This document shows positions 7,844 to 60,677 of a stretch of DNA of 64,000 bases, piece after piece (the stretch's first letter is position 1; each line of letters begins with the position of its first letter). The position numbers and the translations under genes were made by a program. The DNA is from Mustelus asterias (taxonomy: Eukaryota). The notes under the pieces are model-generated. The model was given only the letters and a program-made list of their open reading frames with translations. It ran no database searches and had not been told where the DNA came from. The stretch lies in NCBI RefSeq assembly GCF_964213995.1, contig NW_027590122.1:1116001-1180000 (forward strand). Reading direction: 5' to 3'.

Positions 7844-8680
7844 TTAACCCTTTACTCCCCTCTTTGGTCGATCACGCTTCAAGCTAACCAAGTTAACCTG
7901 ATTTGAGTCCCTTCTGTCTTTGCAGCGGCACTGGCGCTGGTGTCTTATATTCATCGGGGCAATGACGGCTACCTTAGATTTCTGGTAATTATCTACACTG
8001 GGTCGATTCCAACAATCCTCCTCCTGTTCATCCGTATCGGTACTGTGCAACAACATTAGCAAGCCAGATGCTTCCGGTTTTTTATCTTTCCTTTGCAGTC
8101 TTTCCTGTTCTGCTCTATCTCTTTTGTCCTTCTCATACTTCTCACATTCCCATTTCAACATTACCCAAGTCTTAGGGTTTTCCTCATTATCACATACATT
8201 GATCCCTCTTCTGCGTGCATTCTTCCCGCCTCTTAACTGTTTTGTTGTGGTAATTCTGCTCCAGTAAGTGGGAGCATTCCCTCTGAGTCTCTGTTTTAAA
8301 CTGGGTGAAGTGTTTATAATTTGCTTTTGGCTGCGCATCTGTTCCCCTTCGGGGTATCGGCGCTAAGTTGTGTTCTAGCACTTCCTACTCCTCTGGAGGA
8401 GCGGTTGGCCCCTGTTGTATGGACTGATTAGGAGGTAGAGGAGCAGTTTCCCCTCTCCATTGCTGGTCTTTTAATACGTGGTTTTGTTTCTCTTGTTCCC
8501 TTCTTCTGGATTCTAACTCTCTAATCTTTTCTTTATCTTGCTCAATTAGTCCAGCTAACTGATGTATTAAGAATACTCCTATCTTCTTTGTCTTGTTTCT
8601 CTTTAGTAGGCAGGGGTGTTCTGTCCGTTAATTCCTTTCACATAGATCATTTTATTCGTTTTGGGTAAGGGTAGGTCAGT
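7844..8680 (-). pseudogene. Second, diverged and shortened gag-like segment
   Basis: KTKKIGVFLIHQLAGLIE and GNAPTYWSRITTTKQ match TQKIGALLVQ*LAGIIE and GNAPTNWSRITHIK in the upstream gag. Confidence 0.65.
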
Positions 8681-8734
8681 GATAGATATGGAGGCTCCCC
8701 TACTAGTGCAGACACGTAGATTCTACCCTCCTTC

Positions 8735-9781
8735 TTACCCTAACTCACGGGGGCCCCTTATTGCCCCTCTGCATCGCCCCCCCCCCCTTATTGCAAAACT
8801 GGCAGGCAGGGACCTTCCTTCTACCTCCCTTCGGAGCCCCACAGACTCTGGCAAAGTGACCCGGTTTCCCACAATTATAGCACACACCCTTTGGTTTAGC
8901 TCCTTCACTGTTTGCACTGACATTTTCCTCTTTTATTTGTGGGTATGGTTTCTCATCTGGTCCGTCTCTAATTCCAGATGCCCATTCTACTAATTCATTA
9001 TAAGTCTGGGTATTGAGAACTCCCATTTTAAGGATTTTTTGGTGAGCTGGCGACAGCCCATCTTTAAATGCTTGTAAAAAGGCTCTCTCTGTTCGGGCAG
9101 TTTCAGGCATCCCCGAACATTCGTGGTATACTCGAAAGAGTCGCTCCCCAAATTCAGAGGCTCCTTCACCCCTTTAATGTTTAATATGGGTAATTCTGGA
9201 CCAGTTTGTTGGTGCGTTACCCGCTCCGTAACTCAGTCTCCACTTATCCTGTGGGCAAGCGGCCCGTAGCAACTGGTGTATATCCTGCAAATGTAAATGG
9301 AGCCTCCCCAGGGATGCCAAAACATGTTGTCTTTCTCCTGGGGTGAAGGGTTTGTTTCGGGCAGTGGGACTCTGTAATGTCCCGCCCCGAGTTATGGGAG
9401 CGAGAAGATGGACCTATTCCTCATGGGGGTCTCCCACTGGTGCCGTGGGTTGTACGACCGGCCCATAGGGAGGCAAGGATCCCCAGCCGGGGTCCTCTAA
9501 ACATTAGTTTCCCTTCTCTAATTCTCTTTTCGCTTTGTCATCAGCCCATTTCATACACAAGACTGCGACCTATTCAATTATTCCGGCCAATTATTGAACT
9601 AAGAGAGCTCCAATTTTCTGAGTTCTGTCTTTCTTTTCCTTTTTCAACCATTTTCGTTGTTGGTCTAGTGGGTGGTCTAAATCCCACCCCCCTTTGTTCA
9701 TCTGTTTAATGACTTTGTCCCTCTTAGTCATATATTCGTTTATCAGGGACCCCGGGGCCCCCATTGTCCTTGTCCCGCCAT
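8735..9781 (-). pseudogene. gag: ERV gag, degenerate
   Basis: Zinc knuckle CYNCGKPGHFARVC; capsid C-terminal AFLQAFKDGLSP; downstream of the PBS; several stops. Confidence 0.85.
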
Positions 9782-10278
9782 AACATCGATAAGTTTATAC
9801 TCACCACCTGGAGTCTTCTATTCTCCTTTCTCACTCTCCCTCTCCTAGGTTGCTCTTATCTGAGTTGGGTGATACCTGTCAGGGGTGATCAGATCCCTCC
9901 GTACCACCACTTATACTATACTTTTATTAAGCCGGCTTTCACATGAAGGCTTTTCCTTCAACTCCAGCGATCACTCCGACAGTTTCTTTCTCACTCACGT
10001 CTGAACATCACACCTCAGGCAACTTTTTTCCAGACCCTAACACCCATTTCAAATCCTGTCCTCAGCGTGGGGGATTTCGTCTCTTAACATTCAGCCTAAG
10101 GCTGGGTGTTAGAGTCAATTGCCTCCTTGTCCGTATGTGCTCAGTTCAGACATCTTTCATTAGTTCAGACAGTCTCTCATCACAGATGATCATCCACTGT
10201 ACTTTGACCCACTGTATTAAATTCGGTAATCTATTCCGGTGTCCCGGTCGTGGCCATTCGACCGGACCCGTAATCAGA

Positions 10279-10296
10279 TCCCAGGTTTCGGCACCA
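10279..10296 (-). promoter_or_regulatory. Primer binding site, tRNA-Phe
   Basis: TGGTGCCGAAACCTGGGA, 2 nt after the 5' LTR; 17/18 match to the complement of the vertebrate tRNA-Phe 3' end. Confidence 0.9.
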
Positions 10297-10298
10297 AT

Positions 10299-11005
10299 TG
10301 TTGGAGGTAAAATAATACCTCTGAGACTAGTTTTAGAGTCAAAGTACAGTGGTTTATTTGCACAATTGTGGAAGAGGTCCTCCCTAACACGGTCTCAGAC
10401 TTCTAACTGAATTCAGGTCAAGAGCAAACATTTGTACATATATTTTCACCCCTGGTCACGTCCTTATCTTCCCATGACTATTGCTGTCTCGGCAAGTTCC
10501 ATCTTTCCCGTGTAACCGTGGCCATCCTCAAAGCTGCGAATATCTGTTTTGTCGCCACCTGTGCGTTGTTTATCCATCACACAAGATTATAAGTTTGCAC
10601 CAACAGGTTAAGTAAGATACAGGTGCCTATGTCGCAATTTATATCAGTAATAATAGTGTGGATGAACAGCATATAATGAATATATATGAATCTATTGTTA
10701 TACGATGACAGAAGGCATACATGTCAGCTCAACCGTGTTAAACAAAGGTACATAATAGAAAGGAACATAAAATGGAGTCTGCTTAGCTAATTCTGCTAAG
10801 CCACATTCCTGATACGCAATTAGCTGGGAACAGCAAGGACAGCTGTCTCTCTTATCTGGTTTGGATACATGAAAACAAATTCCACAGACATGAAAACACT
10901 GAGCCCTAACGTAAACATGAGCTCAACAGTGTTTCTCACAAAATCACAGAGTTCGTGTCTCAATGCTTAAGTGTTACAAAGTTCATTAACCCATTCCCAT
11001 CTTCA
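10299..11005 (-). repeat. ERV 5' LTR
   Basis: Direct repeat of 211-917; followed by the PBS on the minus strand. Confidence 0.95.
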
Positions 11006-14759: not shown

Positions 14760-15213
14760 TTTTTTTCTTATTGAACCAATGTCAGGTCGCTCGTGGCTCA
14801 GTTCGTAATCCAGAGATTATTACCTTTTCCGTTCCGTTTTGAATTTAGGTCCTAACTGCTCATATTCCCTTTGCAGAACCTGCATCCTTGTTCTGCCTTT
14901 GTCGTTGATACTTACATGGACCATGACAAATAGATTTTTCCCCTCCCATTACATGTTACTATGAAGCCCACATGAGATGTCCCGAATCCTGGGATCAGGT
15001 AGGCATCGCAACCTCCGGGACCCTTGACCCTGATCATAGAGAAAATTGTCTTTGACCCTAACTATGCATTCGCTGATTACGACTACGTTTCTCCTTGCTG
15101 TCCCTCTTGAAAGACCACCATGCTTTTGTCAGTTCGCTTATTCTCCCTCCAGTGCTCGTTTTCATCCACAGAAGCAGCAAGAATCTCGAATTTGTTCGAC
15201 AAGGAGAAGGGCT
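14760..15213 (-). mobile_element. CR1 ORF1 fragment
   Basis: LSNKFEILA and a degenerate VVVHVS.ND esterase-like block resembling ORF1 at 27398-28114. Confidence 0.55.
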
Positions 15214-15215
15214 GA

Positions 15216-15556
15216 GGTTTTCGTCCAGCTCTCTCTGTGTACTGTATCACTGTGTCTGTAATCCTCACTATGTTAAGGTTTTTGTACAGCTCTCTCCTTG
15301 TTCTGTATCACTGTGTCTGTGATTTTCACCAAGTTCATTTTTTATACAGCTCTTTCTGTGTTCTGTATCACTGTGTCTGGAACCCTCACCATGTTCACGG
15401 TTGTACTGCTCTCTCCGTGTTCTGTATCACTATGTCTGTAATCATCACAACGATCAGGTTTCTTTACAGCTCTCTCCGTGTTGTGTCTCACTATGTCTGT
15501 AATACTCACCATGCCCAGGTTTTTGTACAGCTCTCTCCGTGTTCTGTATCACTGTG
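15216..15556 (-). repeat. Tandem array of six 23-spacer recombination signal sequences (~60-bp unit)
   Basis: Heptamers (plus strand cactgtg/cactatg) start at 15248, 15309, 15369, 15428, 15489, 15550; each lies 23 nt from a nonamer position; 15277-15315 and 15518-15556 are perfect CACAGTG-23-ACAAAAACC. Confidence 0.93.
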
Positions 15557-15861
15557 CTTTGCTCCGACTCAGTGCACAGTGATACAAAGCGGAATCGCTC
15601 ATTTCCAGTTTGGAGATCTTTAACCAGCTTATTTTCTCGGCAGAATCGATAGAAGCAGAAATTCTCCCACCTGCAGCATTTTCTTTATTTTCCTCTCCTG
15701 ATGTCTGTGTCTGAAGCAGGTATTTCGGAGACTGTCCTGCAGACTGACTGTACCAGCGTATAGTATACTGACAGAACCCTGAATATTCCCAGCTTAAAGT
15801 AACCGTGTCACCAACAGCAGAGTTTGTAGAGGCGGATTCTTAGACACAAGGTAACGAGAAT
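15557..15861 (-). pseudogene. Leaderless supporting TCR-delta V segment of a NAR-TCR cassette, damaged
   Basis: ESASTNSAVGDTVTLSWEYSGFCQYTIRWYSQSAGQSPKYLL...ISKLEMSDSALYHCALSRSK; extra Cys in CDR1; pyrimidine tract + AG acceptor; consensus 23-RSS; first canonical Cys codon is TGG (15789-15791); 5' end out of frame with a TAA. Confidence 0.88.
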
Positions 15862-16019
15862 CTGGGGGATAAAAAAAGAAACAGCGTTTGCTTCTGTGGT
15901 TCAGTCACTGTTTACCAGGGGAATGTGTCAATTCCGGGAGTAGCTCAGTTTTATCCGGTATTATTATTATTTTAAATCTGATGGAACTGTATTCACTGTT
16001 ATTATTATTATAAACCAGT

Positions 16020-16253
16020 GGAAAATGAGGTTTTCTTTGCACAACAAGATCCAACGGTCTGGAATGCAATGTCGGAATAGATGGTGGGAGCTGAATCAAC
16101 AGTGACAAACACACGGGTAATACTCAAGCGCCGGAACAGGAATAAAACGGTTATGGGAAAATCCATGACTCGAAGAACTGGATTTCACTTATAAAGAGCT
16201 GCATCTACTCGAGGAGCCGAATGTCACCCTTTTGCACTCTATGATTCAATGAT
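16020..16253 (+). mobile_element. Very old CR1-type 3' end remnant
   Basis: gtctggaatgc...ggttatggg...gccgaatg...ctatgattc pattern shared with other CR1 tails. Confidence 0.55.
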
Positions 16254-18075
16254 GTATGTTACATTTCACTGTCTATTTCCCTTCCTAAGAGACAAACACG
16301 AGGGAACATTTTATTATCAGTGAGGCAATCCGTTTCAAGTGACTAACCCAGCTGCGTTACGTCACAGCGCACAGCAAGATGCGACAGGGAATGACTGTGA
16401 TTCATCAGCTCCAATGGGGTGGAATGATGTTGAACGTCGGTGCTCAAATGTCATTCATTTGTATCTGTTTAACACTTCCCCGGAATCTCTGTTTATTCAT
16501 CTATTTGTTTTTCTTCTGCTATCGAACTATCAGGAACATCTCTTCTCCTTTTCTCTTTACTTGGAAATATTTACAGTCAGTTTTATTTTGTTTCAACATT
16601 TACTTTGCGCTGTTTGGGTTCGTTGCAATCGTGGAAACTTCTCCCAAAGTCTCTCAGTTGTCAGTTGAGTTCATTCTGTTCAGTTTCTGCAGTGGTTTTA
16701 AAGTTACTCACTGGGAACTGCCTCTTCTGGCTCTCTGACAAGTTCAATTCTTTTTTTGCTCTTTAGCTGATTCTCTTCCGCGTTCTCTGGGCGGAATTCT
16801 CTCTACGTTTTAGATTGTATAGAAATTTCAGAAGAGGAACAGGAAATTCGGCCTAGCTCACTGATGTCTGCATAGAAACACCCGACCAGCCTCACCCCTC
16901 AGAAATCTAATTGACCATTTCTATCCAGCTCACTCTGTCGGTCTATTCTGTTCTCCCTTCAATATTTTCAAGTCTTCCCAAAAATGTATCACTCGCCTCT
17001 GCTCCAAACATTCAATGTGACAGCGAGATCCACACTCTGGCTGTCGCTGTTTGAATTTATTCCAACTGATGTATTTATTTTCTTCTGTAAATGACAGCTG
17101 TCAGGAAACACAGGTAGTTTAAATAATCTCTTCAGTGTTTTTGAATATTACAAATGAAGTAAAGGTTTAATCAGTTTAATTTCATATTTTAGTATAAATA
17201 TGGTAAAACTCCAGTTATATTCATTTGATACAAAAGTGTTTTCATGTGTGGGGATTTTGGTTTCATTTTAAATTATGCCTCTATTGACGGTGGAAAATGA
17301 GGAAAGTGATTGGTTATATGGAGGATGTTTAAAGGAATGTCAGGTACAATTTCACAAATTTCAGTCACTGATTTCTCCATTGAAAAATTCAATCCAGAAC
17401 TAAACAGGGTCTCTTATATCTGGAATCCGTTGTCTCTTTTATTCTATTTGTCTCCCGGACCAGGTATTGGATGAGTCGCTGCGGTTAAATGAACTGTCCG
17501 CAAGGGCATTAATCTCATTCAACCGGAAACTCCTTCACATTACACGGCAGGGACTGCAGTCTACTGTCCAGGATAGAGCTCTGCGATCCCACTGCTGGGC
17601 TGTAAGAGACAGGCAGATCTCCCTCGGTCACAATTAACACCGAAGGTGGATTCCAGAATGCCGATAATTTGAACTTGTTATAAACTGTCAGGATTGTGAA
17701 AGCCCTTGATATGGATGTGAACCCCGATGTGCCCGTTAAACCAATGATGACCCAAATGCTGTCAACCCTCACATCACAGCCCGTCCAGCCCCCCCCCCCC
17801 CCCTCCACTTCCACCCCCCACCCCCACCCCCACCACCACCACTATCCCTACAGCTCTGGCCGCCTTCTGCATCAGGTCTCACAGACACTTTCCTCAGGAC
17901 TGACCTGGATCGACTCCTAAATCACGTCCTGTTCCCAAATCGAAATCTGTAACGGATTTGTAAACAGGTCCTTATCCGTTTCATTTGGACTGAAACGATA
18001 CAGATCACGATAATAAAATGACAGTGAGCATTAAACGAGACATTTTGTAACACGGCGGGGTTTGGAGTCACTTAC

Positions 18076-18154
18076 CGGCTGTGACAGTCACCACCGTCCC
18101 TGATCCATCGGCATCATACCATTCGTATACTCTCCCAAACCGCCCCTCGGGAGT
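18076..18154 (-). CDS. NAR-TCR J segment (79 nt; possibly germline-joined DJ)
   Basis: TPEGRFGRVYEWYDADGSGTVVTVTA, then phase-1 GTAAGT donor; preceded by a 12-RSS. Confidence 0.9.
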
Positions 18155-18182
18155 CACAGTGTTAGAATTCAGCATCAAAACC
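18155..18182 (-). other. 12-spacer RSS of the J/DJ segment
   Basis: Plus strand CACAGTG-ttagaattcagc(12)-ATCAAAACC. Confidence 0.9.
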
Positions 18183-18507
18183 CCAGATACTGTGTGAGAT
18201 GCAGGGTCATTAATTAAACAGCGGGGACTGCGGTTTCCAGTTCCAGCTGAGAGACCAGGATCCCATCTTTTGTTTAGGTTTGTAACTGGGATCAGTCATT
18301 TCCATTCTCCATTCATCAACACCAATCCCGTGAAGGATATTAACTTCCCCACAGATTCCATGTTTATAACACTCAGAATGTTAACGGTAATAATCCAATC
18401 TCATTATAAACTAGACTGTGGGATTGACGGTGTGTGATGGAACTGTGCGGGTGTCAGGGAAGATTAACTCCGCTTTTTCATTTGTTTATGTGAAAATCTT
18501 CAGTGAG

Positions 18508-18545
18508 AGTTTTAGTATGGCGGGAAGCCAAGACCCATCACTGTG
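18508..18545 (-). other. 22-spacer (23-type) RSS of the NAR-TCR V
   Basis: Minus strand CACAGTG-22 nt-ACTAAAACT. Confidence 0.88.
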
Positions 18546-19025
18546 TTAATGCCTTTGTAATGGGCTTTACAGTAATAGGTGGCAGTGTCTTCAACTCTCA
18601 CATCCCGAACTTCCAACGAAAATGTCTTTTCTTCTTTATTCACCGACACAACAAATCTCCCTCCGCTGGAGATCCGCTCCCACTCTGTTCCAGCCTGTGT
18701 TTGTCTGAAGAATTCCGCCCTCTCCAAAGCATGAGCAAAGAATCCACCATAGAAAACACAGTTGATGGTGAGGGACTGACACTCCTTCCTTGTCACCGCT
18801 GCCGGGCTCTGTACCACTGAATGACTAAAAGATCCTGGAAAGTGAACACATATAGTTTAATGGACATTCAGAGCCGAACCACACAACGGAGCTGAAACCC
18901 CGGACAATGTCTGTAACTGGGATGGACTGTGGCAGCTTTATATTCAATCCACACAATGTGGGTTAGTTTGATTGGTACTCACGGGGTAAACAGGCACACA
19001 GGGTGAAAACAAGGAGGGCTCCCAT
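18546..19025 (-). CDS. NAR-TCR (IgNAR-like) V gene; leader exon 18983-19025, V exon 18546-18834
   Basis: Leader MGALLVFTLCACLP with GTGAGT donor; in-frame V ..VVQSPAAVTRKECQSLTINC..ERISSGGRFVVSVNKEEKTFSLEVRDVRVEDTATYYCKA; short FR2/CDR2 typical of NAR; extra FR1 Cys; Phe at the usual Trp position. Confidence 0.92.
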
Positions 19026-19339
19026 CACTCTGCTGCCTGGAACTGATGGAAAAATGACGGGGAGCTGCAGACTGCAGAGCTGGACTGCTCTGGGACACTG
19101 GATCTCAGAGCTGGAATTGAAATACTTCAGGCCCGAACATCGTCAATCTTGGCCATGCCCATTGTTTGAAATAAAACTCGAGGATGGAAAGGTGGCAGAA
19201 ATCTGTGAACATTCAGTCGAAATTCCACAGCTATCGCTGCCTCAGAGCTCCCGGCCCGTCTCGGGACCCCACTGGGTGTCGCCATCCACAGTTTGGGAAT
19301 GTCTCTCTTTGTCAAAAGCAAGTAAGATTCTTATTCTTT

Positions 19340-20165
19340 TATTATTGTAAGCGTACAAGTGCAGAAATTGCAGTTGGGGCATTAATATGCTCCTCCTGCC
19401 TGATGTGGGATATCAGGGAGCTTTCAAGTGTCCCTGGCGACTATGCCTGCAGGAAGTGTGATCAGCTGCAGCTCCTCACACACCACATGGTTCGGGTGGA
19501 GCGGCAGCTGGACACACTAAGAAGCATAAAGGGGGAAGTGAGTGTGACAGGCAGTCAGGGAGGTGTCACACCACAGGTCCAGCCATGTAGGTGGGTGACC
19601 GCCTGGAGGGGCAGGCAGGTGAGACAGAAGTCTCCTCTGGCTGTTCTCCTATCAAGCAGGTATATCGTTTTGGATACTGTTGCGGGAATAGCCTCTCAGG
19701 AGAAAATATCAGCAGCAGCCAGGCCTGTGGCACCACAACTGGTTCTACTGTAGAACAAAGTTGGGCTAAGTCCAAGGGACTGATAGTAGTAGAATATGGG
19801 ATAGTCAGGGGCACACACAGTCGTTTCTGTGGCAGCGAGCAACACTCTTGGATGGTGTGTTGCTTCCCTGATGCCATGGTCCTGGATGCCTCTGAGTGGG
19901 TACAGGGCATCCTGAAACGGGAGGGTAAACAGACAGATGTCATTGCCCACAGTGGCACTAATGACAAAGATAGGAAGGGGGAAGTGGTCCTGCGAAGACC
20001 ATTCATGGAGTTAAGTAGAGAGCGGAAAAGCAGGACCTCTCGGGTAATAATCTAAGGATTACTCCCCATGCCACGTGCTAGCGAGGTTTGGACAGGGAGT
20101 TGAGCACGTGGCTAAAGAGCTCGTGCATGAGGGAGGGCTTTAGATATATGAATGACTCGGATGCC
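19340..20165 (+). mobile_element. CR1 ORF1 fragment (zinc finger + esterase-like)
   Basis: CSSCLMW...YACRKCDQLQLL; IVRGTHSRFCG, VCCFPDA, HSGTND. Confidence 0.85.
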
Positions 20166-58157: not shown

Positions 58158-58443
58158 GACACAGTGGTGTTGTCCTGTCACTACCCCGTCACATACACAG
58201 CAGCTTACCATTACTGGTCCGTACAGTACTCGGGATAAGGCCTTCAGTACATGTTGCACAGACACACTGCTGGAATGAAGAGAATGCGCCGGCATTTGCA
58301 CAGAGGTATTCTGCCGTATAGGATAAAATGAACACAAACATCCCTTTGAACATCACAGACACTCAGCTTTTTGACTCAGCCGTGTATTACTGCGCGGCGA
58401 TGAAGCACCACGTGACTTAGAGCCTGAACACTCAAATAAAACT
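58158..58443 (+). pseudogene. TCR alpha/delta V pseudogene with decayed RSS
   Basis: DTVVLSCHY..YHYWSVQYSG*GLQYML../..RYSAV*..LNITDTQLFDSAVYYCAAMK; 5' end replaced by (GT)n. Confidence 0.85.
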
Positions 58444-60225: not shown

Positions 60226-60677
60226 ATGCGGTTATTCGGTATCTGTGCCATGTTTGGAGCATTTATTACAGGTCGTTATTTTGGGTGCAATTTTGAACTG
60301 AAAGTGCGCAGTACTTGATATGTCATAACGGTTTAATGTTTTTAATGACTTTGTTTTCCATTTCATCCAGGTTTTAGTCAGAAATTCTCTGTTACCCAAC
60401 GCCGTCGAACAGTAAATAGGACAGAAGGAGGCATTACAACTCTAAACTGCATCTACGTCACGACAGAAAATACCTTCAGTTTATTCTGGGTCTGGCAATT
60501 CCCTGGGAGAGAACAACAAATACTAATTCGCAAATGTTTGGCTGGTTCCGAAATTAAAGCGGATTTTGTTCGAAGCCGTTTCTCCTCTGGGCTGAACAGT
60601 TCGAGTGGAATCTTTATCTTAACCGTCTCCAAACTGCGGCTCTCTGATACAGCCATGTACTACTGCGTGCTGATTCT
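60226..60677 (+). CDS. TCR alpha/delta V gene, open frame; leader 60226-60271, V exon 60371-60677
   Basis: MRLFGICAMFGAFITG-FSQKFSVTQ..TTLNCIY..LFWVWQFPG..RFSSGLNSSSGIFILTVSKLRLSDTAMYYCVLI; GT-AG 99-nt intron. Confidence 0.88.

Follow-up and report, generated by a model that had tools for sequence, protein, structure and literature searches.

Relation to described receptors

NAR-TCR, a doubly rearranging TCR-delta of cartilaginous fish, has, as characterized in PMC1845163, a V with a leader and a cysteine in the a-b loop and without the canonical tryptophan. The cassette described here lies in a window of 64,000 nt of the Mustelus asterias genome (the whole stretch of DNA that was analysed). 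It has in common with the receptor of PMC1845163 the leader and a VNAR-like V with an a-b loop Cys and no Trp, a D and a J of its own, a leaderless supporting V-delta with a CDR1 Cys, and D-delta, J-delta and C-delta downstream. It differs from it in the fusion of D to J and in a frameshifted supporting V that lacks its first Cys.

Partially germline-joined IgH clusters of the VD-J and VD-DJ types (PMC5192425) and joined NS4 light chains (PMC2193156) are described in sharks. As presented in those two sources, joined shark Ig genes have in common with the window cassette a clean removal of RSSs, a P base, little or no N addition and the occurrence of joined and split copies together; the window differs in being a TCR cassette, in joining D to J with the V left free, and in carrying extra D-like pieces 5' of the D core. 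Marsupial TCR-mu with its V-mu-j (PMC7615758, PMC3457774) likewise has three domains, an N-terminal V that resembles those of antibodies, and an element pre-joined in the germline. In the accounts of those papers the supporting V of TCR-mu is fully joined, probably retroposed and functional, whereas in the window the join is partial and lies in the N-terminal cassette, the leader intron is kept and the supporting V is dead. Rearranged TCR in germline DNA has also been claimed for channel catfish TCR alpha/beta (PMC6170632); as reported there, that case concerns a complete VDJ proposed to have been transposed from T cells, in contrast to the in-place partial join within its own cluster in the window.

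The analysis points to a NAR-TCR cassette in which D and J were fused by V(D)J-type cutting and joining, likely through RAG in germ cells, and inherited, and which is probably non-productive because of its frameshifted supporting V. This reading as a whole is given a probability of about 0.7. A literature search found no report of joined NAR-TCR segments, which is not proof of absence, since key NAR-TCR papers lay outside its coverage; the term NAR-TCR is also absent from the one supplement searched of the elephant shark genome paper (PMC3964593). A clean D-J joint in a TCR cassette beside split paralogues offers a way to test whether RAG acts on a TCR locus in germ cells.

Layout and family membership of the cassette

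The cassette lies throughout on the minus strand and comprises the following features.

18983-19025, minus strand: NAR-TCR V leader exon, intact (MGALLVFTLCACLP), with a phase-1 GTGAGT donor
18546-18834, minus strand: NAR-TCR V exon, open and VNAR-like, with a Cys in TRKEC
18508-18545, minus strand: V 22-RSS (heptamer CACAGTG at 18545-18539, 22-nt spacer, nonamer ACTAAAACT at 18516-18508)
18183-18507, no strand: V-D intervening DNA without a D, 325 nt between the facing signals
18155-18182, plus strand: 12-RSS facing the V signal (heptamer 18155-18161, nonamer 18174-18182), the former D 5' signal
18154-18076, minus strand: fused segment, 79 nt, with the J-frame translation TPEGRFGRVYEWYDADGSGTVVTVTA, ending at a GTAAGT donor
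18140-18154, minus strand: 15 extra nt between heptamer and D core, putatively captured D ends or N bases
18129-18139, minus strand: D core, 11 of 11 nt identical with the free D of paralogues L044, L046 and L053, whose 3' end is present here untrimmed
18128, minus strand: base of the D-J joint, a single A that fits a P nucleotide of either end
18076-18127, minus strand: J, untrimmed, 52 nt (YEWYDADGSGTVVTVTA), with the GTAAGT donor at 18075
15557-15861, minus strand: supporting V-delta exon, leaderless and broken (lesions are given with the supporting V below)
15216-15556, minus strand: 23-RSS-like sequence in six tandem copies, of which two are perfect, following the supporting V

The DJ-encoded stretch to which the window V would be joined is GRFGRVYEWYDAD. 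The tandem 23-RSS copies behind the supporting V are a family trait and are present in most paralogues.

The best matches of the window V in the PDB are VNAR domains (E 2.5e-20), and its homologues are shark two-V gene models, the nearest named ones being gene models of Mustelus asterias at 85-89%. The V has a leader (19025-18983), a Cys in the a-b loop (TRKECQS) and Phe where the canonical Trp would be expected (AEFFRQ). Downstream of the J lies the supporting V-delta (15861-15557) with a Cys in CDR1 (SGFCQY), and no leader-like exon was found within 540 nt upstream of it. D-delta, J-delta and C-delta follow downstream on the same strand (G000:C90:1104421-1080937). Judged by the sequence of its V and by its layout, the cassette is a member of the NAR-TCR family, but it is predicted not to be a functional one: its supporting V-delta is neither open in the J-splice frame nor provided with the canonical pair of Cys residues.

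The earlier note had described a V 22-RSS and a 12-RSS that face each other about 325 nt apart with no D between them, and the coordinates confirm this arrangement. Every heptamer starting with CAC in 18150-18560 was scanned under relaxed settings (at most 2 mismatches in the heptamer, paired with a nonamer of fewer than 4 mismatches). No second qualifying heptamer/nonamer pair was present in that interval, so there is no free D in the V-D spacer, including the interval 18183-18507 in which a hidden D might have been sought. The nonamer of the V 22-RSS is identical to that of the unjoined paralogues.

Paralogues and ancestral layout

When the window's own genome was searched and the best 150 of 665 candidates were scored, 87 matches resulted. 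Merging of split matches left 72 regions, all of which were retrieved and one of which (L031) is the window. Unjoined cassettes with the layout V-22...12-D-12...22/23-J make up 15 of the 72 regions derived from the best 150 of 665 candidates; 38 are VD-joined, three are DJ-joined (the window, L042 and L072), and the remaining 16 are hybrid, truncated, degenerate or IgNAR-like. Throughout the 72-region census, free D segments are 13-19 nt long, and the length of a free J is 52-59 nt. The RSS layout of the NAR-TCR cassette in this census (22, 12/12, 22-23) resembles that of IgH, not that of TCR-delta.

Comparison with the unjoined cassettes identifies the 12-RSS of the window. It lies at an offset of 416 nt from the V Cys (416-417 nt in close unjoined paralogues), and in flank, spacer and nonamer it belongs to the D 5' signal type, not to the J RSS type. 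With its 391-nt spacer it corresponds to the D 5' signal of the unjoined cassettes, and the V-D spacer, RSSs included, is 93-94% identical to that of cassettes with a free D. The proposal that this signal is the old D 5' RSS is thus borne out. The idea that the NAR-TCR family to which this cassette belongs has no D and a natively long J with a 12-RSS finds a parallel in L093, L098 and L099, in which the J carries a 12-spacer RSS. The 12-RSSs of those three cassettes are nevertheless of the J type, differ in their flank and have had their spacer shortened, their J is only 51 nt long, and the longest free J in the 72 regions is 59 nt. Because the window V nests among cassettes carrying a free D and its 12-RSS and flank are of the D type, a D-less family, which the earlier note had kept as an alternative, is rejected and is hardly credible.

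The two other DJ-joined cassettes are L042 and L072. In L042 (G000:C173:93863-100132) the J side is 99.5% identical to L046 and the V side is about 94-95% identical to any other cassette; it is possibly a join between two cassettes. L072 (G000:C119:338430-344708) is more diverged, its fused segment of 74 nt is open in the J frame, and the nonamer of its 12-RSS has decayed. L093, L098 and L099 are degenerate cassettes in which the J RSS spacer has gone from 23 to 12 nt and the D carries a 23-spacer-like signal.

The D-J joint

The 79-nt segment consists of 15 extra nt, an 11-nt D end, one P-type base and a 52-nt J. An 11-nt match to any free D was reached in 14 of 20,000 shuffles, and the J differs at 2 positions from the free J found in L032, L036, L040 and L041. 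The alignment proposed in the earlier note thus gives a D core with a D-type RSS and flank upstream in the 5' part and a shorter J in the 3' part, and no free-D paralogue in the census has a J as long as the fused segment. The D 3' RSS, the D-J spacer (about 375 nt) and the J RSS have been lost precisely at both heptamer borders, the signature of a RAG coding joint. Exact removal at the heptamer border is described as a mark of such joints in PMC2193156.

At the D-J joint itself there is one P-type A and no N region, and the 15 unexplained nt lie on the 5' side of the D. The first 6 of these are identical to the 3' end, inverted, of the L037 and L039 D (9 of 20,000 shuffles); 2 nt later, 7-8 nt resemble the 3' end of the L049 D, an 8-nt match that is weak and post hoc (346 of 20,000 shuffles). 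Twelve of the 15 are G or C (80% G+C), a composition compatible with TdT additions. The inverted D end at the start of the extra bases hints at a multi-step join, and from these short matches we infer a further step, in which a joint of the hybrid or open-and-shut type would have captured D ends and so placed the 15 nt between the 12-RSS and the D core. They are not accounted for by a complete hairpin palindrome of a single D. A germline V-D join, which might be read from the 23 nt by which the V extends past its second Cys, is ruled out because unjoined paralogues carry the same 22-23 nt.

The frame of the 79-nt segment is open before GSGT, and the coordinates, lengths and translation given for it earlier are right. 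The open frame is weak evidence, because only 9 codons are new and the fused segments of both other DJ-joined cassettes are also open.

Germline or somatic origin

The D-J join in the window was very probably inherited in the germline. A somatic join would be expected to leave a majority unjoined form in the assembly, and no unjoined twin of the window cassette was found there among the best 40 candidates per search, hence germline origin is likely. The best other matches reach 91-93% for 15200-18075 and 89% for 18155-19400 (40 scored candidates each), and a 23-nt pattern of the J occurs once in the genome. Joints that are common to diverged copies show that germline joining takes place at the locus: one V-delta-D-delta joint is found in L032, L037 and L039, which are 2.1-2.4% apart, and a joint of the VD family is common to copies up to 20% apart. 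Seven other joints (L035, L042, L050, L105/109/117, L108, L110 and L113) contain 0-2 untemplated bases. They resemble in this respect the germline light-chain joints of sharks, for which PMC2193156 reports P bases and "little evidence of TdT activity". Thus, of the earlier suggestion that D and J were pre-joined in the germline, the fusion itself stands on the matches of D core and J to free segments, and its germline status is likely from the lack of an unjoined twin and from the shared joints. That status rests on the logic of the assembly, because no read or contig spanning the junction was seen. Contigs of X1, X4, X7 and X9 (97%, on 17990-18400) do not cover 18130-18400 and neither bridge nor contradict the joint, and contigs drop rare variants; X2 and X3 gave paralogue-like pieces only, among the matches listed.

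Assembly of lymphocyte DNA, in which somatic D-J joining had been accompanied by an open-and-shut joint with TdT additions, is an unlikely source of the window sequence. It would suit the GC-rich 15-nt insert (12 of 15), and partial rearrangements of the V-DDJ type in IgH are described as common in shark thymocytes (PMC2435157). The assembly also contains single RAG products that have a near-identical unjoined twin (L035, L038, L050, L047 and L113); for several such joins the twin is only 0.3-0.6% apart, and these could be somatic. Against it stand the missing unjoined form, which as the majority should have assembled and was not seen among the best 40 candidates, and the D-J joint with its single P-type base and no N region. 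Still less probable is an assembly artefact or a chance deletion of the D-J spacer: the region is highly duplicated and scattered over many contigs, but neither a misjoin nor a chance deletion would yield a D 3' end and a J 5' end that are both untrimmed at the heptamer borders with one palindromic base between them.

An inherited D-J fusion could have arisen as follows. From the ancestral V-22...12-D-12...22-J layout, which is itself observed in the unjoined paralogues, RAG with little or no TdT would have made the D-J joint in a germ cell. A later event, such as a hybrid or open-and-shut joint with capture of D ends, would have inserted the 15 nt between 12-RSS and D core. After that, the copy would have separated from the near-identical paralogues, and decay of its supporting V would have set in.

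Supporting V-delta and predicted function

The supporting V-delta has a 1-nt deletion near 15822, a stop at 15796-15794 in the J-splice frame, and TGG (Trp) in place of the first Cys codon at 15791-15789. These lesions lie within a 282-nt contig of run X4 that matches without differences or gaps, and X4 may be the assembled animal. A T cell could still join the V to the DJ (22/12); the J donor would then splice to the supporting V-delta at 15861, as paralogue gene models do, and the spliced exon would meet a stop after 21 supporting-V codons. In the supporting-V exon, 21-23 changes fall on the window branch and 3-8 on sister branches (8 comparisons, p 0.0003-0.024), although 5 of 21 differences, which also occur in a more distant group, may be ancestral. 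Singletons number 15 in the window and 0-5 in the six other rows counted. Because the supporting V exon is broken, the window cassette is probably non-productive as a two-domain receptor and would be a leftover of recombination in the germ line, not a receptor ready for use; its biological weight is lower for that.

The earlier note had predicted a semi-invariant receptor with a long, aromatic CDR3, and this is not supported. The untrimmed CDR3 would have 22.7 codons, about 2-4 more than the 18.7-21.0 of the 10 unjoined cassettes computed. Its aromatic residues come from an ordinary J end (YEWYD) and an ordinary V end (HYKG). Somatic trimming and filling would still act on the V-DJ junction, which makes "semi-invariant" too strong a term, and the break in the supporting V also speaks against such a receptor. 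The motifs GRFGR, GRVYE and EWYDA are absent from 57 homologous proteins, which are gene models and not cDNA junctions.

A joined cassette that is germline and functions by a bypass, its V-DJ exon splicing to a downstream V or directly to C-delta and encoding a NAR-V chain whose CDR3 is partly fixed, is improbable. The leader, V, both RSSs and J donor are intact, and the DNA about 22-54 kb downstream of the supporting V contains, in the same orientation, another V, a D-delta, J-delta segments and open C-delta exons. Such a splice is conceivable, as the NAR V is open and without rate excess (8-14 versus 6-9 changes; replacement and silent changes number 5 each) and the distance to an open C-delta downstream is about 47 kb. 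The supporting-V acceptor, however, is intact and would catch the splice, the terminal branch of the NAR V is long (0.056 versus 0.004-0.02), and the upstream and leader region has many private changes (34 versus 14-18, with one outgroup).

Other RAG products and observations in the locus

The whole locus, with many RAG products of different ages and almost no N addition, is a stronger story than the window cassette. Tentatively, and at somewhat less than even odds, RAG may still be rewriting the NAR-TCR/TCR-delta clusters in the germ line without TdT, in view of joints that differ greatly in age within one genome, among them D-J, V-D and V-delta-D-delta joints as well as hybrid and signal joints. 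The window joint would then be a multi-step product of up to three D ends, one of them inverted against the 12/23 rule.

L038 (G000:C110:108987-115268) has a 22/22 hybrid joint, in which the coding end of a NAR V meets an inverted J RSS, and its D block is inverted intact. The same region holds a perfect signal joint of a V 22-RSS with a D-delta 12-RSS. In L050 (G000:C122:391955-398230) a NAR D is joined tail to tail with the 3' end of an inverted supporting V-delta without added bases, and the region differs from its unjoined twin L049 by 0.33%.

Seventeen TCR-delta-type D segments (12-D-23) were found at 17 places in the genome (L104-L120). Many of them lie 24-40 kb downstream of a NAR-TCR cassette and are followed, where checked, by J-delta, which suggests many repeated TCR-delta clusters; 6 of the 17 are already joined to a V. 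One of these places, L113 (G000:C71:11022299-11025318), is a 99.6-100% copy of the DNA behind the D-delta of the window cluster, with a broken conventional V joined directly to D-delta, and may be the other allele, without the NAR cassette. About 6 kb beyond the window start, just upstream of D-delta, a further V (L121:3546-3836, G000:C90) is open, shows IgH-like features and carries a 23-RSS; we take it to be possibly a TCR-associated Ig-like V.

Within the window, two TCR alpha/delta-type V segments lie in the opposite orientation (58173-58396 and 60349-60672, plus strand); the first is broken, and neither has a clear RSS. A decayed retrovirus-like stretch with gag-like zinc-knuckle motifs, recognized by eye, occupies about 8000-10400 on the minus strand.
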